Source of the DNA: Okamejei kenojei | Taxonomy: Eukaryota | DNA length: 64,000 bases | Reading direction: 5' to 3' | Assembly: GCA_035221665.1 (NCBI GenBank) | Contig: CM069160.1 | Location: forward strand, 1,116,001 to 1,180,000 | Shown here: piece after piece, positions 1 through 56,885 of the stretch | Layout of the letters: each line of letters starts with the position of its first letter | How positions within the stretch are numbered: the stretch's first letter is position 1 | Made by a program: the position numbers and the translations under genes | Notes under the pieces: model-generated | What the model was told of the DNA's origin: nothing | Databases searched by the model: none | Seen by the model: only the letters and a program-made list of their open reading frames with translations

Positions 1-189
1 CCTGGTGACCGGCATGGACCCAGGCTGCAGCTCGGTGCAATCCTTGAGGGACAACCAGTGCTGCAGGAAGTAAGTACCATAAGCCCCTGCATAGAAAACG
101 GTGGAAGACAGTGGACTTCAATGTTAGGTTGGTCTTGGTTGGGATGAAAAGCATCCTGGTGTGCCTGCTAGATTTCACTTATATGTTGG

Positions 190-505
190 GGAGTTCAGGA
201 ACAGGTGTCGCTGTTTAAGAATAAAAGGGTAGGCCAAGTAGGACTGAGATGAGGACAAACTTTCTTCACGCAGAGAGTTGTGAATCTGTGGAATTTCTTC
301 TGCCATAGGCAGTGCAGGCCAATCACTGGATGTTTTCAAGAGAGAGTTACCTTTAGTTCTTGGGCTAACAAAACATAAGGATGATAATATGGGGAGGAAA
401 CTGAAAGGTACTGATTTTAGATGAATAGCCATGATTCTTATTGAATGGCAGTGCTGCTCAAAGGGCCGATGGCCTATTCCTGCACCTATTTTCTATGTTT
501 CTACG
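190..505 (+). mobile_element. CR1/HER1-type LINE 3' end fragment
   Basis: Degenerate ...FTQRVVNLWNSLP coding tail and 3' UTR ending cctattttctatgtttcta, as in the many other copies in the window. Confidence 0.85.
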
Positions 506-1031
506 ATTGAGTGTATAGCAATAAAACTCGATACTTGATTTGAAAGTATTCATGCATGTTGGAGGTATAATGTAGTCATAGTGATTCGTCGTGAAAAAGG
601 GCCTTCGGTGCAAACTTGCCCACACCCGCCACCAACCAAGACCGCTACGCTACCTGCTTTTGGTCTATACCTCCAAACCTGTCCCTAATCCATGTCTAAC
701 AGTTTCTTAAATGTTTGGGATGGTCCCTGCCTCAAGCTCCACTGGCAGCTTGTTTCATACACCCACCACCTTTTGTGTGGAAAAAAAGCTACCCCTTAAA
801 AGGTTACCTCTTAGAAATACATCATAACAAAATACTGAATACCACAGAAAATATTATGTACTCTCTCAAGATCACATTTTAATAGAATAATATTGCTTAA
901 ATATATATAGTTATTGGACTTTTCATTTCGGAACAAAAGTCCTAGCTGAGAGGAAGACAACAAAATACTGAAAATATGGGGGGGTGAAAATGACTTCAGG
1001 GACTTCAGGTTTGTTATGAAAATGAAAGAAA

Positions 1032-1395
1032 TTGACAATAGGTGCAGCGAGCAGGCCATTCGCCCTTTCGAGCCAGCACCGCCATTCAATGTGATCATGG
1101 CTGATCATCCCCAATCAGTACCCCATTCCTGCCTTCCTCTCCCCCATATCCCTGACTCTCCGCTATTTTTAAGAGCCCTATCTAGCTCTTCTCTTGAATA
1201 ATCCAGAGAGACCTGACTCCACTGCCCTCTGAGGCAGAGAATTCCGCAGACTCACCACTCTCTGTGAGAAAACGTGTTTCCTCGTCTCCGTTCTAAATGG
1301 CTTACTCCTTATTCTTAAACTGTGGCCCCTGGTTCTGGAATCCCCCAACATCGGGAACATGTTTACTGCCTCTAGCGTGTCCAAGCCCTTAACAA
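1032..1395 (-). mobile_element. CR1/HER1-type LINE 3' end fragment
   Basis: ORF 1178..1384: FPMLGDSRTRGHSLRIRSKPFRTETRKHVFSQRVV. Confidence 0.9.
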
Positions 1396-2289
1396 ATGGT
1401 AAAAACTTATTGCTGAGTGAGTATAATTTTATGGATGAGAAATTGTGTTCGACCTATTGATGACTTATTTGACAAAGTAACTAGCATGTTAGATAACAAG
1501 GAAGCCAATGAATGTAGCAAATTTTTTTTTTTTTTGTTATGCATAATTTGGTCTTTTAAGTGCCCCATAAAGGATCACTGCATTAGATAAGCCACCTGTG
1601 GGCTTGAATGTAATAGGTTAAGACCAGGGGGTCAGATATGGGGCTTTATGTGTGGGCCAGATATATTGTCAGTGCAAAGGGGCTAGGAGCAAAGGCCAAG
1701 TGTGCATCCAGAGTCTAGGTCTGAATAGTACTAGGTCTGCAGTCAAAAGCTGGGACCCAGGGGAATGTTCAGCACTGGGAACCGAAGCAGGTAAATCAGC
1801 TATGATCACGTATTAGTAGAACAGAGTAAGGCTGGACTCGTCGGGGACAGGAATGAGAAGAAGGTATGCAACTGGGAGTCAGGGCCAGAGTAGTACCAGG
1901 TGTGCAGTGAGACCCAGATGGTCAGCATGGGCCAAGGGTATTGATTATAACCTGATATTCATACATGAATACATTAATATGCACCATATGAATACAGTAT
2001 GCACCATAATCGTACAATTTCCAAGCTGAAAAATGCAAAAGTTCGGTAGTACCATTGTGGGGGGGGCACCCTCCTCCCACCCCCCCCCCCCCCCCCAGTC
2101 GCTCTGCTCCCTCGGGCTTGGTCTCTCGCAATTTATGACTCCCAACTGTCACCCAATGTTGGCAGCCCTGAGACCCAATTCCGATCTCGCGTATTGGAGC
2201 AGTGAAAACCAACCTCTCCTGGGCTGTGGGTCAATAGTACGAAAACCTGATCCCTAACCAGTCTGAAAATCACCGTGTATATCTCTCGT

Positions 2290-2397
2290 TTCCCCGATCC
2301 CTAACCAGTCTGAAGAAGGGTCTCGACCCGAAACGTCGCCTATACTCCTTCGCTCCTTAGATGCTGCTGCACCCCGCTGAGTTTTCTCCAGCTTTTT
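2290..2397 (+). mobile_element. Penelope-like element terminus with minimal hammerhead-like motif
   Basis: CTGAAGA-A-GGGT-CTCG-ACCC-GAAA-CG-TC at 2310-2337, followed by the gatgctgc...ctgagtt..tccagc tail typical of these repeats. Confidence 0.65.
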
Positions 2398-2545
2398 GGA
2401 GTCGCCATGCAGTGAATGACTTGCGCCTCACAGACAGGTGAGCACTGCTCAGCCAACGGTTTATCTGCAGTCCCACCAGACGCCTATTGTGGTCCAAAAT
2501 CCTCACCACTGGGGGCGATAAACCACCGTCAACAAGCGCAGTTCA

Positions 2546-2664
2546 CCCGGCAACGATGACGCGTGAGGGACTAAGGCCTGTGATTGGGGAAGGCTGTAGG
2601 AAGTAAGATGACAGGTGACAATAGGCTTTCTGTTGGTTCCTGGTTTCACTTCTGGGGACTTTCC
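2546..2664 (+). promoter_or_regulatory. MHC-type regulatory module: X1/X2 box, Y box, ISRE and kB site
   Basis: CCCGGCAACGATGACG (2546), ATTGG 37 nt after the X start (2583), GGTTTCACTTCT (2642-2653), GGGACTTTCC (2655-2664). Confidence 0.7.
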
Positions 2665-3139
2665 AGCCAGATCCAGTTCCCATTGTCTGAACCAGAGTGA
2701 CTGGTTTGGACAAGGACAATCTTGCAGCTCAGGGGAGCAAGGAGATGGGAGAACATGTGAGCCTTGGGAAGACCAGAAAAGCTGCAGCAGAAACACAGCG
2801 GGTGAGGCAGCATCTATGCCGAGAAGATGGAATAGGCGACGTTTCTGGTCTAGACCTTCTTCGAGACCTTATGTCAGTCTGGGGAAATTATTGGAAAAAT
2901 ATATCTGAGGGACAATATTAATCCTCCCCTTGAGAAGGTAGAGATTAATCAACAGTCAGCTTGGTCTTGTTGGGTGGGAGATCCTGTCTGACAATGTAAG
3001 ACAGCACAGTCAATGTGGTTTAATGAGGTTTAGTAAAGCCTTCTGACAAGATTGCACATGCGACTTTGACTGGCCAATAGTTAGAGCCTGGTGGAACAGG
3101 GTAATGTGAGCTATTTGGATCTAAATTTGGCAGGTAATC

Positions 3140-3268
3140 AGACATTCCCATTTCCTCCACTGACCTTGCTGTTCTGGGCCTCCCCCCTTGTTAGCGTGAG
3201 TCCAAACGTAAATTGGGAGGAAACAGCACCTCATATTTTGCTTGGGTAGCTTAACAACCCAGCGGTTA
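3140..3268 (+). mobile_element. Penelope-like element GIY-YIG endonuclease C-terminal remnant
   Basis: Degenerate coding for ..DLAVLGL..C....RKLEEQHLIF.LGSLQPSG. Confidence 0.7.
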
Positions 3269-3269
3269 G

Positions 3270-4027
3270 GAAAAGGGGAGATGCAGCGAGATCTGGGAGC
3301 GAGAGTCAGTCATTGAAAGTAGGCATGCGGGTGCAGCAGGCAGTGAAGAAAGCGAATGGTATGTTTGCATTCATATCAAGCAAAGGAGATTTGAGTAAAG
3401 GAGCAAGGGAGGTTCTACTTCAGTTGTCCAGGGCCCTTGGTGAGACCACACCTGGAGTATTGCGTACAGTTTGGTTCTCCAAATCTGAGGAAGGAGCATT
3501 ATTGCCATAGAGGAAGTGCAGAGAAGGTTCACCAGACTGATTCCTGGGATGTTCAGTGGAAAAAAACTGTCTTATAAAGAAAGAACCGGATAGACTCGGT
3601 TTATTACTCTCTAGAATTTAGGAGATTGAGAGGGGATCTTATAGAAACTTTAACAAAATTCTTAAGGGAGTTGGACAGCTAGATGCAGGAAGATTGTTCC
3701 CGATGTTGGGAAAGTCCAGGACAAGGGGTCACAGTTTAAGTTTAAGGGGGACAATCCTTTAAGACTGAGATGAGAAAGACATTTTCACACAGAGAGTGGT
3801 GAGTCTCTGGAACTCACTGCCACAGAGTTGAGGCCAGTTCATTGGCTATATTTAAGAGGGAGTTAGATGTGGCCCTTGTGGCTAAAGGGATCAGAGGGTA
3901 TGGAGAGGAGGCAGGTACGGGATAACTTGAGTTGGGATGATCAGCCATGAATCATATTGAATGGCGGTGCAGGCTCGAAGGGGCCGAATGGCCTACTACT
4001 CCCGCATCTAATTTCTATGTTTCTATG
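3270..4027 (+). mobile_element. CR1/HER1-type LINE 3' fragment
   Basis: MKVGMRVQQAVKKANGM... RT C-terminus through to the 3' tail. Confidence 0.9.
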
Positions 4028-4814
4028 GTATGGAAAATGGACTTCTCTAACTTCAAGTAAACTCTTTTATCTCCTCTCTCTCCATCCCTTCCTCGCCCTA
4101 GTTTGTTATACCATTTTAACTGTCAACCTGCCCGTGAGTTCCATTGTATAACCCATTCTCACCTAACCTACACTTGTGGATCCCACGTTTCCTTGATTAA
4201 TTTGCATATATTCAATTCATTTTTCCTGTCCCTGGTTCCATCATGTCTCTTGTTCCCCTCTCTCCCATCATTTTGCCTGTGACCGGCCCCACCACCATGG
4301 TGTAATTTACAAACTTATAAAATGAGATTGGAGTTCGAGCCAAATTTAGCCGCTTAGTCGTGAGTGTATAGGGAATATATTTTGGGGGGACTGAGAATGC
4401 ATCTCTACGGGGCACCAATGTCCGAGAATTATTGTCGCCAACCCTCTCTGTTGGTGGTATTTTGTGGATCAGAAAAGCAATAATAACAACAAATTATTAT
4501 TGTTATTTGCACAATATTTGTTATTTATTCAAAAAAAAATTACCTGTTAAATACGATGTTTTACATATTCACATATCTGTTGTGCTGCAGCAAGTAAGAA
4601 TGTCATTGTCCCCGTCCAGGGACAAATGACAATAAAACTCTCTTGATCAGAGGCAGAGGAGGGTGTTTGATTCCCAGGTTCAAAGTTTGGTGATGAATTA
4701 GATATAGAATTTTGATGTTGAAGGTGTAGCTACAGTTAATAAATTGGAGTCTAATGTACGGAGGCCTTGTTGTCAGGGTTTTCCAGAGATTAGTTTATGA
4801 CCAGGGAGATGGTT

Positions 4815-5490
4815 TCTACCACTGTGTCCAACACACTCTCCACCCATCCAGACACTCACCACTGGTCCAGAACACTCACCACAGGGTCCAGACACTAGAC
4901 ACCCACTGGTCCAGACACTCGCCACTGTGTCCAGACACTCGCCACTGTTGTGCAGACACTCACCACTAGTGTGCAGACACTCGCCACTGGGTCCAGAAGA
5001 CACTCGCCACTGGGTCCAGACACTCGCCACCGGGCCCAGACACACCCCACAGGGCCCAGTACACTCGCCACCCGGCCAACACTCGACACTCGCCACCGGG
5101 TCCAGACACTCGCCACCGGTTCCAGACACTCGCCACCCACCGGGGTCCAGACACTCGCCACTGTGTCCAGACACTCCCACTGTGTCCCAACACTCGCCAC
5201 TGTGTCCAGAACTCGCCACCGGGTCCAGACACTCGCCAACCGGGTCCAGATCACTCGCCACCGGTCCGCCCCACACGGGTCCCAGACACTCGCCACCGGG
5301 TCCAACACTCGCCACCGGGTCTCAGAACACCGCGCACCGGGGTCCAGACACTCGCCACCGGGTCCAGACACTCCGCCACCGTCCAGAAACACTCGCCACC
5401 GGGTCAGGGACACTCGCCAGCGGGTCCAGACACTCAAGACATCTCGCCACGGGTCCAGACACTCGCCACCGTGTCCAGGGCCCCGCCACA
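4815..5490. repeat. Minisatellite, ~20 bp unit CCAGACACTCGCCACCGGGT
   Basis: Visible tandem copies; they account for the overlapping repetitive ORFs 4773-5696. Confidence 0.92.
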
Positions 5491-5559
5491 GAGGCTGCAC
5501 AGAAGGAGTCCAGTCACGAGCACTCCAGGGAAAAAGAGACGACAACCCAACATTGTTCA

Positions 5560-5602
5560 CCCGGAAGACTGGTGACGTTGCCCAAGGCTGGGCTGTGATG
5601 AG
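5560..5602 (+). promoter_or_regulatory. Degenerate X1/X2(-Y) module
   Basis: GTTCA-CCCGGAAGACTGGTGACG ... CTGTG-ATGAG; shares the GTTCACCCGG and CTGTGAT context with the 2546 module. Confidence 0.45.
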
Positions 5603-6739
5603 GGACGCCGTGTGTTGGCACCGGGCGATTTTACACCGGTGGTTTGGACCGCGTCTGTTTGTACCGCGGGTCTGTTCTCAGTCCCGAGACGCTTGACAGC
5701 TGACCTCCCCCCCCCTCCCCCCGACAATCCACAGCACACAATCACTGTAACCCTGTCAGTGCCGTGGAGCCTGTCCCCATATCCACGCACTCTCTGTTGT
5801 GCTAGAGCCAGGCCAAGGGGAAATAAAACAGGAAACATTCAGCAGGGCGGGCACGCTGTGAGATAGACAGTCATGTTCATAGCCATGACCTCACATCAGA
5901 GGCTGAGGAAAGTTAAGCAAGTTATAAGTGCTGAGAAAGAGGCGAACGGATATTACAAGTGGAGGGTGAATGCAGGTGAGGCCAGGGCCATGATCCCTGT
6001 TAAATCCCAGCTGAGCTGTCTGGGCTAAGTGTAACCCGGTGGAGATGATGTAAATAAGACAGCTTGAACTGAGAGAGTTTTTCTGGAAGAGTGAGATCGA
6101 AAGTGGAGATTAACGCAGATGTTTTAAGCTGAAATAAAAGATACGCTGGGTATACACAGCAGAGACGGGCAGCATCTGTGGGAAGAGAAAGATGCTTCAG
6201 GAGCCAATGTTCCGAATCATCACAGACTCAGTTTCTGATAAAAAGCAGGGAAAGATTGGTTATTTTCAGTCTGTCATCCGTGACGCTGCCCTGGGCTCCG
6301 CCCAGATGATGGGGTGCTACTCCCTGATTATGTTGGGATTCTAAAGCCAAGGTCAGTGAGGACAGAAGTGCCGAGTAGGACAGAGAATTAATGACAGGCA
6401 ACAAAAGCTTGAAGTCACCGCCCATCCTTGGTCACCGCTGTGAGCTGGCAGGTTGATTAACCCAATCTGTGTTCACGCTCCTCCAGTGAAAAATTGAGTG
6501 AGTGTACTAGACAGGAAGAGGTGCTCACGCATCGCTGCTTCAGCTGGGAGGAGGGTCCTCGTCAGTCCAAGGTGATACTAAAGCTAGGAGGGCAGCATGG
6601 CATTTTTCTATGGTTCCATAGGAATGTCCCAGGGGAAGGGAGTGGGTGTATGGTGGGAATGTTGAGACCAGAACAGGAGTCACACAGAGAGCAATCCCTT
6701 CATAAACTGAAACATTTTCGGAAGGTTGTCTAGGGCACT

Positions 6740-7170
6740 GAACGACACCTGTCCTGTGTACATACACCTGGTTACAGACCCTACACCAGTCCAGTGTATA
6801 CATACCTGGTCACTCGACCCTACACACCTGTCGGTGGTATACACATCTGCTCTCTGGCCCTACACCTGTCCTTGTGTACACACACCTGGTCACTGACCGA
6901 CACCTGTCCTGTGTAACACAACCTGGTCACTGACTGACACCTTCCTGTGTATACAACACCTGGGTCACAGACCGAACACCTGTCCTGTGTATCACACACC
7001 TGGTACACTGACCGACACCTGTCCCTTGGTACACACACCTGGTCACTGACCGACACCTAGCCTGGTGTAACACACACCAGGAGTCACTGGCCCTACACCT
7101 GTCCGGTGTGGCACACCTGGTCCACTGGCCCTCACACCTGACCTGTGTACACACCACCTGGTCCACCTGG
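6740..7170. repeat. Minisatellite, ~37-38 bp unit (ACACCTGTCCTGTGTACACACACCTGGTCACTGACC...)
   Basis: Visible noisy tandem copies. Confidence 0.85.
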
Positions 7171-7809
7171 GGTTGGTTCCTGTGTTTTATCACCGGGCAG
7201 GTGTTACGTGGGATGGAGAGGCAGTGGTGGTGCGAGCCTCATGAAGGGTGGTGTGTATTTTGGCGCTGTGGAGGTGGGGGAGGTGGCAGTCGATCTCACC
7301 TCTGACTGTGGGGTCGGGACTGCCCGCTCCGGGTGGAAACTATCAAGCGGCGCTCTCTGCCCCGGCGACTGCGACCGCTCCGTCGATTGTCTGTCCCGGG
7401 AGTGAACCCCCACATAGCCGGGCTCGTCGCCCAATAACCTTGTTCTCCAAACACATTTCTCTTAATTATCTGCTCTAAAACTAGATCCTATACTTCCGAT
7501 TGCCGACCCTTTTAATGCTTTCCGCACAAGGTCTAGCTTTGCTGGATAATTTAAACGGCGTTCCGTGAGGTGGGAACTGATCCCCGGACAACAATGTGTG
7601 GTTAGTTTGCCGCTGACAACTCCCTGAGTGATTCAGTGCTGACTTCGGCAGATTCACGCCGTGACCTCGAGCCACAAGTGGGTTGTCTGTCAGACTGACA
7701 TCTGTTGATGAATATGATTCTTAAAAAGCAGCCCGTTTGCTATTCTGGACTGTAACAGAAGCTGTCATTGCCCTGAGGGTTGAGCCCCGACGGTCCAACC
7801 TGTGAGACA

Positions 7810-8080
7810 GGGACTTTCCACAAAGCCGCTGGTCCAGCTGCACCAATCCAGGCTGCCCGCAGTTGTTGCCGGACAGGGATCAGTGCAGGGGCCGAAGGAA
7901 GCGGATCGGACATTCCTTCACGGTCCCTGCCTTGCAGCACTCCCTCACGCAGTTTAACACCGCCATTCAACTGCCCAGGAAGCAGCCGGAACCGAAGGCT
8001 TTGATGGAAAGTCCCTGCCGCAGGTCTGACCAGCCCGGGCCCAATTCCTCGGCTGATGCCAGCTCGGGGTGGAAGTTCCC
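7810..8080. promoter_or_regulatory. Cluster of three consensus NF-kB sites plus an X-like/CCAAT pair
   Basis: GGGACTTTCC 7810-7819, GGAAAGTCCC 8006-8015, GGAAGTTCCC 8071-8080; minus-strand TCCGGCAAC (7873-7865) with ATTGG (7847-7843). Confidence 0.6.
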
Positions 8081-8194
8081 CACAACACACAGAGCGGAAG
8101 CGGTCCAACAGTCCGAGCAGGGGAAGGGCGCAATGTTTTTCATAGAATCCTGCTAGACAACAGACAACGAAACACACACTTTGTCTTTGCAGAG

Positions 8195-9050
8195 ATCAGT
8201 AAATGTGGATAAAATGTGAGGTTATCCACTTGGTGGCAAAAACGAGAAAGCAGAACTATTATTTAAAATGTGGCCCGAATGAGGAAAAAGGGTGAGATGC
8301 AGCGAGACCTGGGTGTCCTGGATACACCATCATTGAAAGTAGGCATGCAGGTGCCAGCAGGCAGTGAAAATAAGCGAAAGGTATGTTTAGCTTTCATACA
8401 AAAGATTTTTGAATACAAGGAGCAGGGAGGTTCTACTTCATTGTACAGGTCTTGGTGAGACCACAAACCTGGAGTACTGACGTGCAGTTTTGGTCTTCCA
8501 AATCTGAGGAAGGACATTATTGCCCTAGAGGGAGTGCAGAGAAGTTCACCAGACTGATTCTTGGGATGTCAGGACTGTCCTTATGAAGAAAAGACTGGAT
8601 AGACTCCGGTTTATACTCTCTGGAATTTAGGAGATTAAGAGGGGATCTTATGAAACTTACAAAATCATAAGGTTGGACAGCCTAGTAATGCAGGAAGATT
8701 GTTCCCGATATTGGGGAAACCAGGACAAGGGTCCACAGCTTAAGGATAAGGGGGAAATCCTTTAAGAACCGAGATGAGAAAGACCTATCTTCACACAGAA
8801 GTGGTGAGTCTCTGGACTCTCCTCCACAGAGGTAGTTGAGGCCAGTTCATTGCTATAATTTAAGAGTGAGATTGGATGTGGCCCTTGTGGCTAAGGGGAT
8901 CAAGGGTATGAGAGAAGGCAGGTACGGGGATAGCTGAGTTGATGATCCATCAGCCATGATCATATTGAATGGCGGTGCACGGCTCGAAGGCTGAATGGCC
9001 TACTCCTGCACTAATTTCTAATTGTTTCTATGTTTCTATGTTTTCTATGT
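8195..9050 (+). mobile_element. CR1/HER1-type LINE 3' fragment
   Basis: KCEVIHFG..KGEMQRDLGVL.. through a (tttctatg)n tail. Confidence 0.9.
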
Positions 9051-9414
9051 CTTCACAGGTGTTGCCTGAACCGCTGAGTTTCCCCAGCAGCTTTTTTTTT
9101 TTTTTGCAGAAGGCCCTTCGGCCCATCTCGTCTATGCTAAACAAGGTGCCTTCCTCTCAGCTCGTCCATGTCCTGCGTTAGGCCCATATCCTTAGCTATC
9201 TTTTCCCATCCATGTCCAAATGTGTTTTAAACCAAAAGATCCTATAGCGGAGCTTGCTATTGGATCTTTGGTTGTAACTGCTGTAAATTGTGTTCACCTC
9301 TTCCATTATGTCCTTCTGTGTGAAAAATTGCCCCTCGGATTCTTTTCTCACACTGTTTAGTTTTAGACGCCCCTACTCTGGGAAAACCATTGTGATTTAT
9401 CTTTCCTATGGTTT

Positions 9415-9952
9415 AGACAATAGACAATAAGGTGCAGGAGGAGGCCATTTGGCCCTTCGAGTGCAGCTCGCCAGCATTCAATGTGATCATGGCTGATCAT
9501 CCCCAATCAGTTCCCCGTTCCTGCCTTCTCCCCATATCCCCTGACTCCGTTATTTTTAGAGCCCTATCATAGTCTCTCTCTTGAAAGCATCCAGAGAACC
9601 GGCCTCCACCGCCCTCTGAGGCAGAGAATTCCGCAGACTCATCACTCTCTGTGAGAAAAACGTTGTTTCCTCGTCTCCATTCTAAATGGCTTACTCCTTA
9701 TTCTGAAACTGTGGCCACTGGTCAGGACTCCCCAACATCGGGAACATGTTTTCATGCCTCCAGCGTGTCCAAACCCTTAACAATCTTATATGTTTCAATA
9801 AGATCCCCTTCATCCTTCTAAATCCAGAGTGTACAAGCCCAGCTGCTCCATTCTCTCAGCATAACAGAGTCCCGCCATCCCGGAATTAACCTGGTGAACC
9901 TACGCTGCAACGCACACCCTCAATAGCAAGATGTCCTTCCTCAAATTAGGGT
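9415..9952 (-). mobile_element. CR1/HER1-type LINE 3' fragment
   Basis: Reverse complement of the same 3' end with (agacaat)n tail. Confidence 0.9.
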
Positions 9953-10609
9953 ATCCTTGATGATTTTATAAATCTCCATCATGTCATCCCTCACCCCTCC
10001 TCTACTCCAGGAAAAATAGTCCAGGATGGTGGAAGGTTGCTTTCACCCGAACGTGGAAGCTTGTGACTAATGGTTGTGTCTAAGGGTTCGGTGCTGGGCG
10101 CAGACTTTACTTGTCTTCTCCAATTCTACATCAATGATTTGGGTGATGAACCGTACAGGGCATCATTAGCAAGTTTATAACTGAAACAAAAGTGGGTGAT
10201 ATTGCAGTTGGTGAAGATGCATTGCAGCAAGATCTTGATCGGTTGGGCAGGTGGCCTTAGCAATGGTTCATGGAATTTTTAAATACAGAGAAATGGGAGT
10301 GGTTGCAATTTGGGAAGGCTAACATTGGGCAGGACCACACAGTGAATGGTAGGACTCAGGGGGAGTGTTGTAGAGAGAGAGGGATATTGCAGTGCAGGTA
10401 CATAGTTCATTGAAAGCAGCATCACAAGTAGATAGTATGTGGTCAAAAAGACTTTTGTCACATCAGTTAAATATTGAGTACAGAAACTGGGACGGTCCAT
10501 GTTGCAGCTATATAAGACATCGATGAGGCTCATTTAGAGTACTGAGTTCAGATCTAGGCACCTAAGATTGTGACTGGATGTAAATGAACGTGTCCCAGAA
10601 TATCTTGAA

Positions 10610-10905
10610 ATGGGAGGGAGAGAGCCAGAGGTCGTGGTACATATAGGTACCAATGACATAGGTAGGAAAAGAAAGGAGGTCCTGAAAGGAGAATTTAGGG
10701 AGTTAGGAAGAGTGTTAAGGAGAAGGACCGCAAAAGGTAAACAATCTCAGGATTACTGCCTGTGCCACGCGACAGTGAGAGTAGGAATGGAGCAAGGTGG
10801 AGGATAAATGCGTGACTAAAGGACTGGTGCAGAGCGCAGAGATTCAAGTTTTCTGGATCAATGGGACCTATATTTGGGGAAGTGTGGACCTGTACAAAAA
10901 GGACG
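10610..10905 (+). mobile_element. CR1 ORF1 esterase (SGNH-like) fragment
   Basis: ORF 10610..10807 EPEVVVHIGTNDIGRK. Confidence 0.75.
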
Positions 10906-11499
10906 GCAGGTGGGACTAGTGTGTAAATGGGGCATGTTGGTCGGTGTGGGAAAGTTGGGCTGATGAATCTATGACTATTTATGACTCTGCTTAAAACTCA
11001 AAGCCCTTAAATCCTGACAACATCTTTGTGAATTCTTTCTGCCCTAATTCCATTTTAGGGGCATCCTTCCAATAGCTGGACGAGCAGAAGTTGTGCATGG
11101 TACTCTGTGGTCTCACCATCAACTTGTTCAGTTGTTCCACAACCTCTCAATGTTTGTACTGAGCGAAGGTATGCATGCCAAATCTCTTCTTCAACTCACT
11201 GTCTACTTTTTTCACCACATCAGGGAGCAATGTACCTGTACCCTTGGCCTCTATTCCACAACACCTCCAGGGCTCTGTCATTGGCTATGCAAGCCCTGCC
11301 CTGGTTGAACTAACCCAAAATGCAATCCATGGGTGCTGTTGGGAGGGGAGAAGTGTGTTGCTGTCACATGTCCAGTGGGACTGGTGCGAATAAGATAATC
11401 TCATTCTGTCCTTATTCTGTTCAATGCCATCAATCACAGGCCCATCTAGCTTAGCAATCCCCTGTCCCCTGTTCCCCTGGTCTCATTTTTCACACCAGT

Positions 11500-12590
11500 C
11501 TTCAATTCAATGCATCATTCACTGACCCCCCCCCCCTTTCTGCCACCTTCAAACTGATCCCAGCATCGATCACATCTTCCCTCCCCCCACCCCTTTCTGC
11601 CCTTGCGCAGAGAGGGCTCTCTCCACAACTCATTGGATTCCTCATCCCTTCCCACCCAAGGTACGTTTCCTTCCCTCCCCAGGTACTTTACCCTGCAACT
11701 GCAGGACACGTTAATCCCTTTGAGCTCATCCCTCACTTCCAACCAGGGAGTCCAGCAGTCCTTCCAGGAAAGTCAGAGGTTCACGCGCACCCCGTCTAAC
11801 CACATCGACTGCATCTCGTGTCCCTGATTTGGCCTCCTTTACATCAGTGAGATCAAGTTTGGACCAAGCACAAAACCGACAGTAGGGTTGGGTGAGCGGG
11901 CGTAGGGAAGGGTAGTGCGATATATCTCCGCTTTGTTTTTCACATCTTCGTTAATTCAGAGGTTTTTCTTTTATCTTTTTCGTATCTTTTTTGAAATTCT
12001 TTCATTTCTTTTTCCTTTCTTCTTCCTTTCCCTTCTTTCCTTTTTTTTCCGATTTACTTATTAGTTTATAAAATGTTAAAACTGAAGCTGTACGAAAATT
12101 GTATAATTGTTATGTCGATTACTTTCTCCTTGCACAATTGCTTCTAAGAAAATAAATATATTTTTTTTAAGTTTGGACCAAGCAGACTTGGCAATGTTTT
12201 CATAGAACACAATCTCGGTCTGCCAAGACCTATTGAATTACCCAGTTATTAAACATTTTAATGTCCCTTCACATTCCCATACTGACTTTTCAGTCCTGAG
12301 CCTTCTCCATTCCAGCATGAGGTCATGCACATATAGAAGGTGCAGCACCTCATATTCAGCTTGGAAAGGTTACAACTAAAAGGGGATGAATGTTGAATTA
12401 TCACATTTTAGTTAACTATCGTTCCACTTATCATTTTCCAGGATCCTCCCCCTTCCAGATCTCCCCACCCATCATAATCAATCTGGGGAAGGGTTCCAAC
12501 CAAAACATCACATTCATAGATGCCTGACCCGCTGAGTTAGTTTAGCACCTGGTGCCTTTTTTAATAAACCAGCATTTGAAGTTCCTTGTT
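11500..12590 (+). mobile_element. Penelope-like element fragment (GIY-YIG domain and 3' terminus), interrupted by an insertion at 11871-12168
   Basis: SSLTSNQGVQQSFQESQRFTRTPSNHIDCISC..LLYISE; resumes after 12184 and reaches ..QHLIFSL..LQ. Confidence 0.75.
11855..12184 (+). mobile_element. ~300 bp retroposed 3' end (probably L1/Tx1-type) with 16-bp target-site duplication
   Basis: AAGTTTGGACCAAGCA at 11855-11870 and 12169-12184; T-rich body ending AATAAA. Confidence 0.7.
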
Positions 12591-13266
12591 TCGGTACCAC
12601 TGGACGGTTTTGGTCCCAGTACCCAACAAAGGATTTAGTGGCAACAACAATCTGTTGGAGGAACTCAGTGCGTTGAGCAGCATCTCAGGAGGTAAAGGGA
12701 TAGACGACGTGTTGGGTCGAGACTCTGCATCAGGGCAGAGAGTAACCAGTCCAGGGGGGATAGTGGGAGTGGTGCAGCAGTGGCCAGTAGGTGAATACTG
12801 GACTGAGGAGGAGGATGATGAAGGGAAGTTGGAGCTATGTTCAAAAGGGGAGTGTGGATCTAGTGACACCTCCTCCCATACCGTTATCCAGGGACCTAAA
12901 GAAGGTGAGGTAAAGATTCACATGAACCTCCATCCTCCTTTACTGTCTTCAGTAAATATGACCTCCTCTACAAATCGGTGAGACCAAACACAGACGAGGA
13001 AATATTCTCCCCACCTCACAATGTTTCAGGATGTTTTAATTACATCACCGCCTTGCTCTTCACAACTCCGGAGAACAAGCCCAGCCACCCGACCTTTGAT
13101 GCCCAGGCACCGCCCAGCCCAGGTATCGTAAACATTCTGCGAGTTGCTTCCAACTTCCTGAACCAAGGTGAGTGAGAGTGCACAGAACTGCAGGTGTGGT
13201 TCCCCCAATGCCCAGGGTGAATGCAGAGAGAGGGTGTGGTGCTCACCATTGGAACAGAAGGATTTC

Positions 13267-14182
13267 AGCATAGAAACGTGAAACATAGAAAATAGGTGCA
13301 GGAGGAGGCCATTCAGCCCTTCGAGCCAGCACCACCATTCAATATGATCACGGGTGATCGTCCGCTATCAATAACCCGTGCCTGCCTTCTCCCCATATTC
13401 CTTGACTCCACTAGCCCCTAGAGCTCAATCTAACTGTCTTAAATCCATCCAGTGACTTGGCCTCCATTGCCCTCTGTGGCAGGGAATTCCATAAATTCAC
13501 AACTCTCTGGGTGAAAACGCTTTTTCTCACCTCAGTCTTAAATGACCTCCCCTTTATTCTAAGACTGTGGCCCCTGGTTCTGGACTCGCCCAACATTGGG
13601 AACATTTTTCCTGCATCTAGCTTGTCCAGTCTTTTATAATTTTATATGTTTCTATAAGATCCCCCTCATCCTTCTAAACTCCAGTGAATACAAGCTTAGT
13701 CTTTTCAATCTTTCCTCATATGACAGTCCCGCCATCCCAGGGATCAATCTCGTGAACCTATGCTGCACTGCCTCAATTACAAGGATGTCCTTCCTCAAAT
13801 TAGGAGACCAAAACTGTACACAATACTCCAGATGTGGTCTCACCAGAGCCTTATACAACTGCAGAAGAACCTCTTTACTCCTGTACTGAAATCCTCTTGT
13901 TATGAAGGCCAACATTCCATTAGCTTTCTTCACTGCCTGCTGTACCTGCACGCCAACTTTCAGTGACCAATGTACAAGGACACCCAGGTCTCGCTGTACC
14001 TCCCCCTTACCTAACCTAATCCCATTGAGATAATAATCTGCCCCCTTGTTTTTGCCGCCAAAGTGGATGACCTCACATTTATCTATATTATACTGCATCT
14101 GCCACGCATCTGCCCACTCACTCAACCTGTCCAGGTCCCCCTGCAACCTCCTAACATCCTCTTCACAGTTCACACTGCCACC
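13267..14182 (-). mobile_element. Young CR1/HER1-type LINE 3' fragment
   Basis: ORF 13652..14173 LQGDLDRLSEWADAWQMQYNIDKCEVIHFG..LVRPHLEYCVQFWSP. Confidence 0.95.
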
Positions 14183-15455: not shown

Positions 15456-16504
15456 AATGCGTGGGTTTCTTCTGGATGCTCTGGTTTCCGCCCATATCCC
15501 AAAGACTTGTGGGTTGGTGGGTTAATTGACCTCTGTAAATTACCCTGCTGCGTGGGTGAAGGGTGGAATCTGGGGAGAGTTGAGGAGAATGTGGGGAGAA
15601 TAAAACAGGTTAGGGTAGAATTGGAATATGGTAGTGACGGTGGCAGAGACTCAATGACCGAAGGGCCTGTATCTCTGACTGGATGCCTTTGTATCCCAGG
15701 CATTCTATGAAGAAGCCATTGAGGTAGGGAATGACGGATGGCGATGTACATAGGGAAGCCAAACACAGCAGATGCTGTAAATCTGAAATAAAACAGGAAA
15801 CGGTGGAAACCCTCAGCCGGTCAGGCAGCATCTGGGGAGGAAAGAACAGAACTAATGTTTCAGCTTAAGACAGACACAAAAAGCTGGAGTATCTCAGCGG
15901 GACAGGCAGCATCTCTGGAGAGAAGGAATGGGTGACGTTTCCGCTCGAAACCCTTCCTCCGCTTGACAGTATTTCATCCAAATACATTGCCCACTTCAAC
16001 ATTCAAACAGCTTTCAACTTTCACACAGCACTTCTGTTCGAGATCTTCTCAATGAACACCAAAGTGGTGCTAATACATGGAACTGGATGTACGAAGAGTT
16101 GGAAGATACCAGGGGTTTTGAATATATTTGGAATCAGACTACCAGATCCGTGTGGGACATTGGTCTCCACAGTTTAATACTGACCCAGTGGCATGGGATA
16201 CATGTTTCAATGCCCCCTTAATCTCTGCTGACCAGGACTATGAATAAAATCCTCGATATTCACTCCGACAATTTCAGATAACCAGATTTATAGTCTGTGT
16301 TGGGACAGTAAGATCAGCCACTGTAACATTTGTTTAGAGTTCCTCTTCCCACAGCCGATGCCTGAGTCGCTGGGGATTTCCAATGTTCCCCTTTATTTCT
16401 AGGCCACAGAAACAAATTCTACCCGGCAACGGGTGACACACTGCAGCCGCGCCCATTTCTTTGTAAACTGATGATGGCAAGCAAGTTGTATACATTCATT
16501 ACCA

Positions 16505-17060: not shown

Positions 17061-17480
17061 CAGTGGAGCCCCTCAACATTACATTTCCGTGTTGGCACTG
17101 ACAGGCAGCTATGGCATTGACCTCCAGGGTCCCTATGTCCATCACAGGCAGGTGCTGCCATATAACGTGTGCTGGATGTGGATGTGGGGGTAGATGGGTG
17201 GCAGATCGACCTGTGACAGGCGGGGGCAGATGGGTGGGAATGGGTGAGGAGAGGATAAGCGGTAGACAATGATCCGGACTCGGTGGGACAAGGTGGGACA
17301 GGGATGGAGGGGCTGCATGGAATTTTGTCCGGAGATGCCGGTGTGCTTCCCGGGATTGGGAGCGAGGAGATCTGGTTCAGACGGGACACTGGGGGAGGGG
17401 TTGGCTGTAAAATCGGCAACAGCAGAGAAACAGCGTGCAGCCTCTCAAACCACAGGCTCACTAACATGGGGAATAAGCAA

Positions 17481-17522
17481 CCAATGAAAAGGCGAGGCTA
17501 CCATGTGTCATCTGTTGCCGGG
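17481..17522 (-). promoter_or_regulatory. X1/X2-Y module (duplicon copy B)
   Basis: CCCGGCAACAGATG + 23 nt + ATTGG, the same geometry as the mammalian HLA-DRA X-Y module as recalled. Confidence 0.7.
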
Positions 17523-20500
17523 TAGGATTTGTTTCTGTGGCCCGTTTGGGACCTGAGAGGTTTCACCCTTCAGTTGTTGATGCAGCAGATGTGTCTGAGG
17601 GAGGGGTAAATAGAGGAGGTGAAAGAGGGCAGGGGAGAGGAGTAAATAATCGTGGGAGGGACTCACCGCAGATGCTGGAAATCTGAAATAAAGGAGAATG
17701 TTGGAAATCCCTTGTGGGTCAGAAGGATTGAAGAGTTGCGAATTGTGAAGCCAGAGGAAAGGATGTTGGTGGAAGGGAAGGGGAGAAATAGGCACGAGTT
17801 TGGGTCGGCACAGGAGGGGAGGGGGGTAGAAAGTGGATGTGGGGAGAGGGACGGGCCATGTTACATGTTAGTTAATATTCAACCTTTATACCATTGAGTT
17901 CTGAGCTGCCCGAGCGGATTATGAGATGCTGTTCCTCTAGTTGATGTCTGCCCTCACTCTGGCAATGAACAAGGCCCACGACAGTGTTAGCTCAGTATGG
18001 GAATTAAAATGGTTCGCCACCACGACATAACCGGACAGACTTGATGCACAGAACGGTGTGTTCTTCATCCTCCCTGGCGTTTCCACCATATCCCTCTTCG
18101 GTTTTATATTTCACTGCTTTCCTGCCCTCATCTAATACTCTTTTGTTTCCTGTTCATCTCTAGCCTTTGTCACTTACCCCAACCATCTGCATCTGCCCAT
18201 CATTTGCCAGGCTTTGTCCACTCCCACCTCCTACTCCACTGAGTTTCTCCAGTATTTTGATCTTAGACAGGGTTGAGAGTCAGAGCCTTTTCCCCAGGAT
18301 GGAAGTGATAAATAGCATTGAATGTATTGCGTTAAGATGAGAGGGGGAATGTTTGGAGGATATTTACAAGGTAGGCTTTTCACTCGGAGGACGGTAGTTT
18401 CCTAGTATGTGTTGCGAGATGAGGTGGTGGAAACAGATATGACAGCAACATCTAAGAGACATTTTCAGGCACATGAACAGGCTGGGAATGCACAGATATA
18501 AAGCATATGCAGACAGATAGGATTAATTATCCACACAGACATGGTGGGACAAATGGCCTGTTCCTGTGCTGTATTGCCCACTGACCCACTTCCACCACAC
18601 TGTCCCCCTCACATAATCCTTCACCCACCCACTCCTCTGCCCTTGCCAAGTGCTGGCAATTGGGTTTGGTAATGATCGTACCTGATGGTTGGCATAGAAA
18701 TGATCGGCCAAAGGGCGCGCTACTGTGTTATATGACTATAATCCATGACTACGGCTAATTTCAGATAACCAGCCGTTCCAGTTTGTGTTGAGACTGGTTG
18801 TGTTGTAAGATCATCCACTGGAACATTAGTTCAGGATTCCTCGCCCACAGCTGCTGCCTGACCTGCTGGGGATTCCCAACATTTTCCTTGATTTCAGGTT
18901 TCCAACATCTGTGGCGTTGTCACTCTCATAGTTCTGACATCCTTATTTACCTCTCTCCCCTGTCCTCCTTCACCTCCTCTATTGACCCCTCCCTCAGACA
19001 CATCAGCAGCATCAACAACCGAGGGACAGTCTCTGCAGACCCGGGACTGGGGGTGAAACAAATCCTACCCGGCAACGGGTCACACGCAGTAGCCGCAACA
19101 TTTCTTGCCACCTTTTATACTCAGTGGCGCGACTGAAGATGTCAAGCATGCTTTACGCACTTTTCACCGTCCCATCACATTGTGTTGGCACTTTCAGGCA
19201 GCTATGGACTTGCAGCACATGGTCCACCTGGCCAGCACTGCCAGGGTCCCATCATTTAATGTGTGCTGGATGTAGATGTGAGGAAGGGTGGGGGTAGGTG
19301 TTCGACCTGTGACAGGCGAGGGCTGAGGAGAGCATAAACAGTAGACAATGATCCAGCGGGTGGGTGTGGGGAGGGAAGGGCAATGTGGGACAGGGACGGA
19401 GGGGCTGTACGGGACTTTGTCCAGAGTTGCTGGTATGTTCCCAGAATAGGGAGAGGAGATCTGGTTCAAACAGGTTGACTGCAAACAGCAGAGACATAGA
19501 CTGCAGCCTCTCAAACCACAGGCTCAATAACATCGGGAATAAACAGCCACTGAAATAGTACGGCTACGTGTGTCACCTGTTGCCGGGTAGGATTTATTTC
19601 TGTGACCTGTTTTGAAGGCGGGAGGTGTCACCCTCAGTCCCGGGCTGCAGAGACCGCCCCTCTGTTGTTGATGCAGCGGATGTGTCTGAGGGAGGGCTAA
19701 ATAGGAGGTGAAAGCGGGCAGGGGAGAGGAGTAAATAAGGACGTCGGAATCGTGGGAGGGGCTCCGCAGGTGCTAGAAATCTGAAATAATGGAGAATGTT
19801 GGAAATTCCTAGTGGGTCAAAAGGATTGTAGTTGTGAATTGTGAAGCCAGAGGAAAGAGGTTGGTGGATGGGGAGGGGAGAGAGAGGTGCGAGTATAGAT
19901 GGGCAGAAAGAGGGGGAGAAAGTGGGCAAGGGGAGAGGTAGTTCGGGGTTGTTCGAGGTTAGCTAATATTGGCGAATTCAATGTTTATGCCCAAGCAGAA
20001 TATGTAGTGCTGTTCCTCCAGTCTGTGCGTGCCCCACTCTGGCAATGGAGAAGGTCCAGGGCAGAAAGCTCAGTTTGGGAATGGGAATGATAATTAAAAT
20101 GGTTTGCCACCTCGAGAGGCTGTCGAGCATGGCGCACTGAGTGTGTGTTCCCCTTCCTCCCCTGGGGTGGGTGGCTGATCGACTGTGACAGGTGATTACA
20201 GAGGGGTAGCTGTGTGGGTGGGGAGATACTGTAGGCAATGATCCAGACGGTGGGGTGGGGAGGGAAGGACAAGGAGGGGTTGTTTGTGGGAGTGGGAGGG
20301 AGGGAGGGAGGTACTGCACGGGACATTGTCCGGAGATGCCGCTGTGTTTCCTGGAATTGGGAGAGGGATCTGATTCAGATGGGGGGAGGGGTTGGCTGGA
20401 AAATCGCCAACTACAAGAAGCAGAGAAACTACAAGAGTGCAGCCTCTCAAACCTCAGGCTGACTTACATGGGGAATAAACAGCCAGTGAAATTGTAGGCT

Positions 20501-21244
20501 ACAGCGTGTCACCTGTTGCCGGGTAGGATTTGTTTCTGTGGCCCGGTTGGGACCAGGGAGGTTTCACCCCCAGTCCCGGGTCTGCAGAGACCCCCCCCCA
20601 ATGTTGTTGATGCAGCTGATGTGTCTGAGGGAGGGGTAAATAGAGGAAGCGAAGGAGGGCAGGGGAGAGGGGTAAATAAGGTAATCTGAAACAAATGAGA
20701 CGGCTGTGAATCCCTTGTCAAAAGCATTGAAAAGTTGCGAATTGTGAAGCCAGAAGAATGTAGTTGGAGGGGAGAGGAGAAATAGGTGTGAATCTAGTTA
20801 GGGGGGAGGGGTGTGGGTAGAAAGGGGGTGTGGGGAGAAAGAGGTGGTTTTGTTAGAGGTTACCAAAAGTTGGAGATCTGAGTGTTTATACTGTTGGGTT
20901 GTAAGCTATCCAAGCGAAATATGAGATGCTGTTCCTCCAGTTTGTGTTGCCTCACTCTAGCAATGGAGGAGGCGCAGGATAGATGGGTCAGTATGGGACT
21001 GGAAGGAGGAGGAATTAAAATGGTTAGCAGCTCAGAGATCTGGCAGACTGAACGCAAGAGTTCTGTGAAAGGGTCACTGAGTTGGAGGTAGCAGAAATGT
21101 CAGAGAAAGATGTGTTGGAAGCGGCTGCTGATGGGGTGAAAGGTGAGGAACAGGGGAACTCTGTCCTTGTTCTGTCCAGGGGGAAGGGAAGCAAGACCAG
21201 GACTAAGGGACACAGGAGATATGAGTGAAGGATCAATCTATTGT

Positions 21245-22290
21245 TATTTCCAGAAATAAACTTTATTTAAAATAAAAAAAATATATACAAAACAAGAACA
21301 GTGCACAATTTCTTATGACAGTCTCAGCGACGATGCATTCCTTTGGTAGTGTTCACAGAACTATTTTAATACTAGGCACCCTTACCACTCTTACTGCCCT
21401 CTGGGGTGCTCTCCCTTCCCTCGTTTAAGGGACATCTCATCATACCCTGCCCTCCCAATGTTCAGCAGCTGAAGGATCCTGGACTGTGGTCCTCCCCCAC
21501 AGAGTCTTGATGTTGGCTGCACCAAGCTTCAGTGCGTCCCTCAGCAATCTGGATCAGGCCAGTAGCCAACATTCCCTGATGGACATTACACTCTGCAAGG
21601 TGATCAGCAAGTTTCGATCAGACCAAAGATCGTCTTCCACAGAGTTGATGACCTTCCAGTACCACTTGATGTCCATCTCCGAATGTGTTCCTGGGAGCAG
21701 TCAATAAATCATCGAGTCCTCTGTTAAGGAGCTGTACGGGATAAATCGTGACCGGGACCCTTGAATCATTCTACAGACTCTTCACAAATCCACACTCTGG
21801 GAAAGGATGGGCACCCATCTCTTCTCCATAGCAGCCGCCCCAAGGACAGCGTGCGCTGGTAGTAAGGTTCCGACGGTGCAGGAAGGATCTGTCTAGGAGA
21901 CCCCTTGAGGCATTTCACCAGACAAGCTGGGCAGTCTGTTGGGGAACCACGCCACAGCATCCATCCAATCCTTTTCCCGCAATGTCTGCAGGATGTTCTC
22001 TGCTGACCGCTGCCTGATAGTCTGGTGGTCAAGGGTGTTGGTCTGAAAGAACCTTTCCATGAAGGACATTGTGCGGCATCTTTGCCAGGCCCATCCTTCT
22101 CAACGCCAGGGTCAGAGGGAACCTCAGCAGATCATGACACTTAGTGCCCACGTGCTCACATGCTTTGCCACTACACACAGCCTGATGCAGTCACACACAA
22201 AGATGGCCTTCAGGATGAACACTTGTTGGCCCACAGAGTAGTCACACAACAGGTGGCAGAAAAACTGGTCAGTGAGGGGGTGGAATGTCA
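21245..22290 (-). mobile_element. L1/Tx1-type LINE 3' fragment
   Basis: A/T-rich tail at about 21250-21290 and degenerate Cys/His-containing post-RT coding sequence. Confidence 0.55.
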
Positions 22291-23830
22291 GAAGTGATAG
22301 GAGCAGAATTAGGCCATTCAGCCCATGAAGTCTACTCTGCCATTCAATCATGGCCGATCTATCTCTTCCTTCTAACCCCATTTTCCCCATAGCCCTAGAC
22401 ACCCGTACTAATCAAGAATCTATCTATATCTGCCTTAACAATATCCATTGATGGCCTCCACAGCCGTGTGTGGCAAAGAATTCCACAGATTTACCATCAT
22501 CTGTCTAAAGAAAATCTTCCCCATCTCCGTCCGAAAGGAACGTTCTTTAATTCTGTGGCTATGACCTCTAGTCCTAGACTCTCCAACTAGTGGTAACATC
22601 CTTACCACATTCAATCTATCCAAGCCTTTCACTATTTGGAAAGTTTCAATGAAGCTCCCCCCCCCTGCCTCCCCCCACTCCTCACCCCCCCCCCCCACCC
22701 CCCTGGGGCCCCTCCCCCCCCCCCCCCCCTCTAAACTCCAATGCGTACAGGCCCAGTGCTGTCAATATACTCATCATATGTTAACCCACTCATCCCTGGG
22801 ATCACTCCGGTAAACCTCCTCTGGACCTTCTCCAGAGCCAGCACATTCTTCCTCAGACTGGCTCCATCCATTCCTTTGATTCAAATAAAAGTGTCCAAAA
22901 TTGCTCACAATACTCCAAATGTGGCCTGAGCATCACTTCATCAGCATTACATCCCTGTTTTTGTATTCTAGGCCTCTTGAAATGAATGCTAGCATTGCGT
23001 TTGCCTTCCCTACTACCGATTTGAAATCCTGTCCCAGCACTTCCAAGTCCATTGGCACTTCTGAATTCTGGATTCTCCCCACATTTAGAAGACTCCACAC
23101 TTTGCTACACGGTATTCCATCTGCCACTTCTCTGCGCACTCTCCCAACCTGTCCAAATCCTTCTGCAGAGTTCCTGCTTTCTCTATGCTACCTGCCCCTC
23201 CACCTATTTTCGAACTCCGCTAGTCACTGGTGGCCAACCAGAAAAAGCCCCTTTATTCCCTCTCTTTGCCTCTGCCATCCAGTCAACCTGCTACCCATGC
23301 TAGCATCTGCCCTTTGATATCATGGGCTCTCATCTTAGCAGCCTCACACATGGCACCTTATCAAATAAAATCTTGGTAAACAACATCTACTGACTCTCCT
23401 TTGTCTGTCCTGCTGTTTACTTCTTCAAAGAATTCCAGAAGATTCATCAGGCAAGATCTCCCCTTCACAAAACCACGCTGACTTTGGCCTATTTTATCAT
23501 GAACTTCTAAGTACTCCGTAACCCCATCTTTATAATGGACTAAAATCTTGCCAAACACTGAGTCAGACTAACCAGCCTATAGCTTCCACTGTGTAGAAAA
23601 GAACTGCAGATGCTGGTATAAATCGAAGGTAGACACAAAATGCTGGAGTAACTCAGTGGGTCAGGCAGTATCTCTGGAGAGAAGGAAGGAATGGGTCAGC
23701 ATCTCTGGTCAGCCTATAGTTTCCACTGTTCTACTTTGCTCCCTTCTTGTACAGCTGAGTAATATTGGCAATTTTCCAATCATCTGGAACCATTCCTGAC
23801 TCCCGTGATTATTGATATATCACTATTACG
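22290..23830 (-). mobile_element. CR1-type LINE fragments (RT region and 3' end)
   Basis: ORF 23361..23558 GQSQRGFVKGRSCLMNLLEFFEEV..VDVVY; 22435..22698 SRTRGHS. Confidence 0.85.
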
Positions 23831-25010: not shown

Positions 25011-25253
25011 ACCTCAGCAACAATGATCTAATATGGACTGTGTTTGGTTCCACTGCTGACTTCAGATTTACACTTTGATCAGTTTTGCAATTACTGATTA
25101 TTAATGTATTGTACAATTATTTATGTTGCTGCGTTAATGGGCTGATAAAGCTGCAGGAAGTGGGAATTCCATTGTTCCATTGTCAGTACATATGGGGTTA
25201 AAACACACTTGACTTGTTTCTTTATCCAAAAAAGGTTTCAGAAATAAATCCTA

Positions 25254-25295
25254 CCCGGCAACAGGTGACAAACTGTAACCACACTGCTGCATTGG
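25254..25295 (+). promoter_or_regulatory. X1/X2-Y module (duplicon copy F)
   Basis: CCCGGCAACAGGTG + 23 nt + ATTGG (25291). Confidence 0.7.
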
Positions 25296-26793: not shown

Positions 26794-26833
26794 CCGGCCA
26801 ACAGATGACAAAGTACAGCCGCGCCTTCATTGG
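26794..26833 (+). promoter_or_regulatory. X1/X2-Y module (duplicon copy G)
   Basis: CCGGCCAACAGATG + 21 nt + ATTGG (26829); flanks 26690-27000 homologous to copies B, D and E. Confidence 0.6.
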
Positions 26834-28830: not shown

Positions 28831-28920
28831 CTTGTTCTTCTTCCAGTTGAGGATCCCCCACGCCTCTAGGCCACACCAGGACAACGAGCACAAGCAATGA
28901 GCGGGAACCTTGTTGCTGGA
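28831..28920 (-). CDS. MHC class I transmembrane exon (frameshifted)
   Basis: AG/GT bounded; reads ..LLVLVVLV..GVG then ILNWKKNK (hydrophobic span and basic stop-transfer) across indels. Confidence 0.7.
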
Positions 28921-29254
28921 CTTGCGGACAGTCAGAGATCACAGGGACATGTGGGGCGGGCGTGAGGGACAGAGAGCGGGTTCGCGGCTGCCCTCCCCCA
29001 CCCCCTTCTTACCTAACCTCCGTCTTCACTCACCCCTACCCTTCTCATCTTCCTCACTCTCCCTCCCTGCCGCACCCTTCTCACCCTATCCCCCCTCTCT
29101 ATCCCTCCCCTACCTTTCCTCCTCTCTCACTCCCCTCGGCCTATCCGTCCCCTTCGCATCCCCCCCTCCACTGCTAACCCTTCAGCTCCAACTCTCTTGA
29201 TCCCCTTTCCCTCATCTTCCCATTCCCTTACCCTTCTCCACTTTCCATCCCAGC

Positions 29255-29820: not shown

Positions 29821-29908
29821 ATGCCCTCTCCAACTTCTTCCCCCTCCGGTTCCTTCACCATTCCCTCCAAAACGCCGCACCTCCCCATCTCTCCCCCACC
29901 CCACTCAC

Positions 29909-30170: not shown

Positions 30171-30184
30171 CTGTGGGAGAGGAC

Positions 30185-53018: not shown

Positions 53019-53021
53019 AAG

Positions 53022-56870: not shown

Positions 56871-56885
56871 TGTATAACTAGCAGT

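Follow-up and report, generated by a model that had tools for sequence, protein, structure and literature searches.

The closest described systems are the regulatory modules of the mammalian MHC. The available parts of two papers describe a platform of RFX, CREB/ATF and NF-Y on which NLRC5 or CIITA acts, with IRF and NF-kB adding induction (PMC3837245, PMC3987962), and in the available part of the former the class II promoters are without an ISRE and a kB site. In the mouse, as far as the accessible text of PMC4374748 goes, the modules bound by NLRC5 sit upstream of a transcription start site (TSS), one such module lies between the genes of the TAP1/PSMB9 pair, and no intergenic MHC site is bound. 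The reporter primers in the same text give the H2-K ISRE as AGTTTCACTTCT, and the hand-counted gap between X1 and Y is 28 nt in H2-K and 27 nt in H2-Eb. The mammalian class II region contains about 40 non-promoter X or X-Y sequences, some of them active, according to the accessible portions of PMC2292219 and PMC7866136. For elasmobranchs, we found no description of MHC promoter boxes in the literature searched, which lay mostly outside subscription journals, and the word "promoter" is absent from the main text of the main genome paper on the elasmobranch MHC (PMC10751288).

The element described here lies at 2546-2664 of the window, by which we mean the whole 64,000-nt stretch of Okamejei kenojei DNA that was analysed. 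On the + strand, it opens with the X1 box CCCGGCAAC at 2546-2554, a putative RFX site in which no substitution is listed in relatives; its 5' half resembles H2-K (CCGGACAC) and its 3' half H2-Eb (CTAGCAAC). The X2 box, or site alpha, follows at 2555-2563 (+) as the CREB-ATF half site GATGACGCG. Its TGACG starts at 2557, directly after X1, which is the X2 position of an SXY module, and TGACGCG is common to the element and H2-K. The Y box at 2578-2587 (+), an inverted CCAAT for NF-Y, has its ATTGG at 2583, 28 nt after X1. Next comes an ETS-like AGGAAGT at 2598 (2593-2607, no strand assigned), which also reads as a + splice donor or a - splice acceptor. The ISRE, or IRF site, GGTTTCACTTCT at 2642-2653 (+) is identical to the H2-K ISRE at 11 of 12 positions and is the sole match to its pattern within the window, and the NF-kB site GGGACTTTCC at 2655-2664 (+) begins 1 nt after it. 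All the motifs named in an earlier note on this DNA (X1, TGACG, ATTGG, AGGAAGT, ISRE and kB) were found at the places given there. The note had also remarked that kB and ISRE lie downstream of Y, the reverse of class I promoters, in which they are upstream of SXY, and the coordinates confirm this. By eye, no clear S box was seen upstream of X1. The S box is a determinant of NLRC5 action; its position about 16 bp upstream of X reads CACCGT here, and a likeness of 4/6 lies 4 nt further up (also by eye).

The combination of boxes was compared with 300 1-kb block shuffles, using motif patterns written after the sequence had been seen. Single boxes carried little weight, as the ISRE pattern occurred in 238/300 shuffles and the exact kB site in 68/300. 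The X1-X2-Y arrangement was observed 3 times against a shuffle mean of 0.03, with at least one in 8/300 shuffles. An ISRE abutting a kB site occurred in 2/300 shuffles, and the full X-Y-ISRE-kB chain, itself a post-hoc pattern, in 0/300. The window has nine RFX half-sites with an ATTGG within 45 nt, and the gap is exactly 28 in three of the nine. No exact ISRE-kB match was found among the metagenome contigs searched.

The absence of the whole chain from the shuffles argues against a reading in which the element is not regulatory but a chance cluster of motifs, a coding exon (+ 2471-2602 or - 2593-2504) or part of a mobile element. We consider this reading very improbable, although the post-hoc nature of the patterns speaks for it, as do the open frame and the splice-like ends of either exon. 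Against the exons, the minus frame over the element (2593-2504) had no match at E<=10, and the only matches of the plus frame (2471-2602) were two repeat proteins (36-38% across about 33 residues).

Related organisms provided further evidence on this point. Contigs of three DNA runs (organisms A, B and C) and one presumed RNA run were aligned to 1400-3250; shares in the sequencing-run search were at most 0.13. Depth over 2454-2763 was low (0-452) in all three DNA runs, as against 1e4-1e7 on the flanking repeats. The presumed RNA run yielded no contig across 2454-2763, which says nothing about expression. That is, this stretch is low-copy in three related organisms and does not show the many copies of a high-copy transposable element, which speaks against a mobile-element part. 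Organism C joins 2234 to 2498 and is thus without 2235-2497. The immediate 5' flank thus differs in this organism, where the + strand exon would be without an acceptor. A SINE-like piece lies within 2235-2497, so that this stretch directly 5' of the module was probably inserted in a single lineage.

Sparing of the boxes was observed directly among the listed changes. The 14 substitutions listed between 2456 and 2739 all lie outside the boxes; they are part of a set with 93 other substitution rows and 92 indel rows. In organism A, the sparing was not significant (0/44 vs 11/174, p=0.08, listed changes only). The flanks of the element also align in these close relatives. The organism B contig over 2643-2773 carries 5 changes and 6 gaps, 2 of them placed, and A2605G in organism A leaves the ETS, + donor and - acceptor readings of 2593-2607 intact. 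G2569, which lies in TGAGGGAC, is A in all three related DNA runs; this change breaks the word, and it is synonymous in the minus frame, a point in favour of the minus-strand exon.

The X1 word CCCGGCAAC was found seven times in the window. A profile of five copies (nhmmer) led to seven loci at 16.4-27.0 kb, in both orientations. Two of them are truncated, namely 16402-16463 (+), which has X1-X2 and no Y, and 18858-19106 (+), with X1 at 19068. An intact Y is present in the copies at 17077-18025 (-; X1 at 17522, Y at 28 nt), 25227-25588 (+; X1 at 25254, Y at 28 nt, a kB-like site downstream) and 26685-27140 (+; X1 at about 26794). In the copies at 19173-20115 (-; X1 at 19587) and 20228-21028 (-; X1 at 20523), the alignment shows that Y reads AGTGG and ACTGG, respectively. 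Three of the copies are local duplications of about 1 kb with about 70% identity, and the five aligned ones are 56-82% identical in pairs. At 19255-19400 (-) and 17200-17300 (-), family copies run into a short hydrophobic, leader-like frame that stops at a weak donor, and these may be decayed first exons. A GT pair about 15-20 nt after Y is invariant in the five copies and aligns with GTAAG at 2603; alone it is not significant. No coding exons were found near these relatives among 138 ORFs of at least 47 aa searched with Pfam.

In the five aligned copies, 17 of 21 X1/X2/Y columns are invariant, compared with 73 of 240 columns elsewhere (p=7e-6), the copies having originally been located through the box. 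With seven copies and the 2546 element, several modules are thus under constraint. A profile of the post-Y sequence without the boxes recovered only the five box-carrying copies, and the unanchored family profile gave no match at 2546 at E<10. We then compared the 115 nt after Y with Y as the anchor, a comparison devised after the alignment had been seen. The likeness of the element to the family was matched by 0/2000 shuffles and 4/2554 window tiles, and by 1/2000 shuffles with ISRE and kB masked. Most copies share collinear landmarks after Y, namely GTTTC at +50 to +60, a kB-like site at +68 to +79 and TCTGAA at +103 to +115. By sequence comparison, the element also has the tail common to the 16-27 kb family (2665-2696, +), which ends in TCTGAACCAGA. 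Since its post-Y stretch resembles the five copies in the same order, the reversed order is a family trait. Judged by its sequence, the element is a remote member of the family and the only one with a consensus ISRE and kB site.

Two other places in the window carry similar boxes. A second X1-X2 module with a degenerate Y, at 5560-5602 (+), is the reciprocal best hit of the element and is weak: its likeness is within the shuffle range, and 52/2000 shuffles equalled it in the Y-anchored test. Three kB sites lie at 7810-8080 (7810 +, 8006-8015 - and 8071-8080 -), two of them inside an inverted 20-nt repeat. The window contains three exact GGGACTTTCC words, a number equalled in 1/300 shuffles, and 7810-8080 is possibly a further enhancer. 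This stretch is CpG-rich and low in repeats, and an X1-like CCGGCAAC on its minus strand at 7872 has its ATTGG only 17 nt away. Homology searches with 7743-8192 and 7806-8153 gave no result.

The family can also be read as a set of promoter-plus-exon-1 remnants. The element would then be the relic promoter of a duplicated, decayed MHC gene, with little or residual activity. This fits copies that are local duplications in both orientations, two of them truncated and two with a broken Y, and the available part of PMC2292219 reports that human XL-7 and XL-8 are thought to be remnants of pseudogene promoters. However, the boxes are far better preserved than the rest of the copies, the ISRE and kB site at 2546 are perfect, the post-Y sequence is unlike the class I gene's own promoter, and tblastn found no second class I exon set in the window. 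We regard a relic as improbable. The human XL remnants are themselves active, so this reading overlaps with that of an enhancer.

The candidate target in the window is an MHC class I heavy-chain gene of the classical type at 28850-39594 (-), recognised by Pfam, homology, tblastn and frames. The Pfam match to MHC_I had E=1.5e-6, and in the protein search 12/12 matches were class I; the best named ones belong to two skates and reach 73% and 70% across 40 residues. By tblastn, the leader was placed at 39594-39536, alpha1 at about 33215-32935, alpha2 at 32053-31773, alpha3 at 30171-29927 and the TM exon at about 28960-28850 (all -). The alpha2 piece retains T143, K146, W147, Y159 and Y171, which we take to be peptide anchors, and we therefore think that the gene is of the classical type. 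Intron 2 contains two N gaps, and each exon has several frameshifts, which are probably assembly errors rather than marks of a pseudogene. No cytoplasmic exons were found left of 28.9 kb; these may lie in the gap of 500 N that occupies 27382-27881. Another gap lies at 61537-61681. Because the 500-N gap lies between the element and the class I gene, their linkage rests on scaffolding.

The class I gene has a promoter of its own at 39682-39777 (-), with X1-X2 at 39725, a Y-like box and a non-consensus kB-like site. The ISRE pattern is absent from the 1.9 kb upstream of the gene, and this promoter is without the post-Y tail of the family, since 1147/2000 shuffles do as well. The nearest class I start codon is 36.9 kb from the 2546 element and on the opposite strand, so that the element is not in the position of a class I proximal promoter. 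The earlier note had stated that no gene is adjacent. This agrees with our searches of 1-27 kb, a weak test, and a class I gene is nevertheless present 26-37 kb away. This gene, the 7-8 further X-Y modules, the family-wide reversed order in the window and the skate- or ray-like character of the DNA, which marks it as that of a cartilaginous fish, all go beyond what the note had described.

The Pfam searches covered 125/167 ORFs plus 18 others, six frames of 1-4800 and 5440-14101, and the 138 ORFs mentioned above, and left out 4800-5440, 22290-23480 and parts of 14.1-16.3 kb. Only MHC_I and Cpn60_TCP1 rose above the cut-off, and no gene was found in the scanned parts of 1-27 kb. Even in the recognised class I gene, Pfam failed to find two exons with frameshifts, alpha1 and alpha3, so this is a weak test of gene absence. 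No proteasome, ABC or Ig family was found in six frames of 1-4800 and 5440-14101, and no divergent TAP and PSMB within about 600 bp, as at a bidirectional promoter of the TAP1/PSMB9 type, in six frames of 1-4800; frameshifts weaken both tests. The window contains no convincing match to short motifs typical of PSMB, TAP, B2M and class II, and a TAP-like reading of 1-178, suggested by a likeness, was not borne out, as the frames matched nothing. No Rfam family was found in 1-30000.

These searches bear on the main rival reading, in which the element is the proximal, perhaps bidirectional, promoter of an unrecognised gene. In its leftward version, transcription would start near 2600, with kB and then ISRE shortly before it on the minus strand, arranged as in class I promoters; a GTGAGG at 2503 would serve as the donor of exon 1, and the next exon would begin at an acceptor at 61/60, with an ATG at 15-13. 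TAP2 is the candidate gene by synteny. In the rightward version, the start would be near 2700, with an ATG at 2745 and a donor at 2757, and the product might be a non-coding RNA. Splice-like words are indeed present, organism C retains the sequence from 2498 on and hence the minus-strand donor, and the CpG o/e around 2100-2620 (0.65-0.77) exceeds the median of the window (0.40). In the accessible text of the respective papers, TAP2 of the white shark starts 31 kb downstream of a class Ia gene on the same strand (PMC10751288), human TAP1 and LMP2 share a TATA-less bidirectional promoter with a kB site (PMC2191963), and mouse Tap1 and Psmb9 share one NLRC5 peak (PMC4374748). The element here lies 26 kb past the class I TM exon.

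On the other side stand the missing proteasome, ABC and Ig families and the frames at 1-178 without a match. In addition, the X-Y module would face away from a leftward gene, inside its exon 1, and among the 16-27 kb relatives, which occur in both orientations, the search yielded no coding exons. The stretch 1-75 bears on this reading. The earlier note had suspected another diverged copy there; words are shared, but the alignment score is 26 (rank 178 of 3090 tiles), which is at chance level, since 40 shuffled queries reach 31-46 in the window, and the comparison with 5560 is also at chance level. The shared word TGAGGGAC is the one that G2569A breaks in the relatives. A word shared with 1-75 reads as a minus-strand splice acceptor at both places, and together with the position of white shark TAP2 this makes a leftward promoter a serious rival. 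We judge a promoter of an unrecognised gene to be rather unlikely.

Several other features of the window were noted. The GC-rich edge at 1-74 has a strong + donor GAA/GTAAGT, equally a strong - acceptor, and is likely an exon of a gene running off the window. The stretch 7304-7430 (-) is CpG-rich. It has an ATG near 7415 and, at 7303, a GTGAGA donor, and it may be a first exon in a phase compatible with acceptors at 2593 and 60. GC-rich minisatellites lie at 4833-5435 (20-nt unit), which stops 125 nt before the 5560 module, 6736-7163 (38), 39976-40349 (21), 49101-50380 (38) and 62462-63587 (34). Many LINE pieces, which we take to be of the CR1 type, are scattered in the window. A Tc1-like DNA transposon was seen by eye at about 42055-43665; it has terminal inverted repeats, and its transposase is frameshifted. 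An LTR-flanked endogenous retrovirus-like element lies at about 52400-59360, its env-like frames at 56853-58655 broken by stops. Pfam recognised an exon of the TCP-1/cpn60 family (Cpn60_TCP1) at 62256-62441 (+), presumably exon 1 of BBS10. The available part of PMC10751288 places bbs10 on the MHC chromosome in white shark, catshark and sawfish. In sharks and sawfish RXRB is 5' of bbs10, whereas here the class I gene is found across an N gap, which indicates a rearrangement or a scaffolding join.

The reading that we put forward, tentatively and as a little short of probable, is that 2546-2664 is a distal interferon/NF-kB-inducible MHC X-Y enhancer within a cluster of modules. By analogy with mammals, RFX on X1, CREB/ATF on X2 and NF-Y on Y would build a platform docking a co-activator of the NLRC5 or CIITA type, while induction by interferon and TNF/TLR would come from IRF and NF-kB, bound to the ISRE and to the adjoining kB site, respectively. 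About eight X-Y modules are distributed along 25 kb 3' of the class I gene, and only that at 2546 has an intact ISRE and kB site. If the mammalian model applies to contacts and targets as well, the cluster may loop onto the class I promoter, which has X-Y boxes and no ISRE, and/or onto antigen-processing genes beyond the left edge. That mouse NLRC5 binds no intergenic MHC site and that no clear S box is present count against an enhancer. The earlier proposal of an MHC-type enhancer or orphan promoter thus holds in part, with the X1-Y spacing, the MHC context and the box sparing in relatives on its side. An extension of our reading seems doubtful to us, namely that local duplication has given skates or rays, on the class I side of the MHC, an X-Y array resembling a locus control region, with the interferon/NF-kB response carried by a distal module instead of the class I promoter.

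In its sequence, the element is a real MHC-type X-Y, ISRE and kB module; modules of this kind are known, and its layout and lineage are new. It resembles the mammalian classical class I promoter (H2-K, HLA-B), which combines enhancer A, an ISRE and S-X1-X2-Y and is served by NLRC5, as given in the available parts of PMC3987962 and PMC4374748, in X1, the X2 TGACGCG, Y, the 28-nt gap, a near-identical ISRE and a kB site beside it. In contrast to that promoter, its ISRE and kB site are 3' of Y, there is no clear S box, and the class I start codon is 37 kb away. The multiple X-Y modules in both orientations within the MHC recall the mammalian class II distal X-Y/XL elements and the HLA-DRA/Ea locus control region (RFX, CIITA), which the accessible portions of PMC2292219 and PMC7866136 describe as non-promoter elements, some of them probably promoter remnants. 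Unlike these, the element here has a class I gene as its neighbour, belongs to a cartilaginous fish and is coupled to an ISRE and a kB site. The promoter of salmonid classical class I (UBA) likewise joins an S-X-Y-like motif to an ISRE in a fish, but it is gene-proximal, according to the part of PMC11695323 available. The bidirectional TAP1/PSMB9 (LMP2) promoter is similar in its kB site and in that no TATA box was seen here, whereas no proteasome or ABC exon was found on either side of the element within the window.

Among the living lineages that have an MHC, cartilaginous fish branched off first. The mouse-like X1-X2-Y spacing and the near-identical ISRE therefore suggest that the RFX/CREB/NF-Y geometry and interferon control predate the split of sharks and bony fish. 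If the cluster is an enhancer array, it would be a counterpart, outside the mammals and on the class I side, of the distal enhancers of class II. Distal X-Y control is established for mammalian class II and has not been seen for NLRC5 in the mouse; if the extended reading is true, such control would be an old, or an independently evolved, way of running class I.
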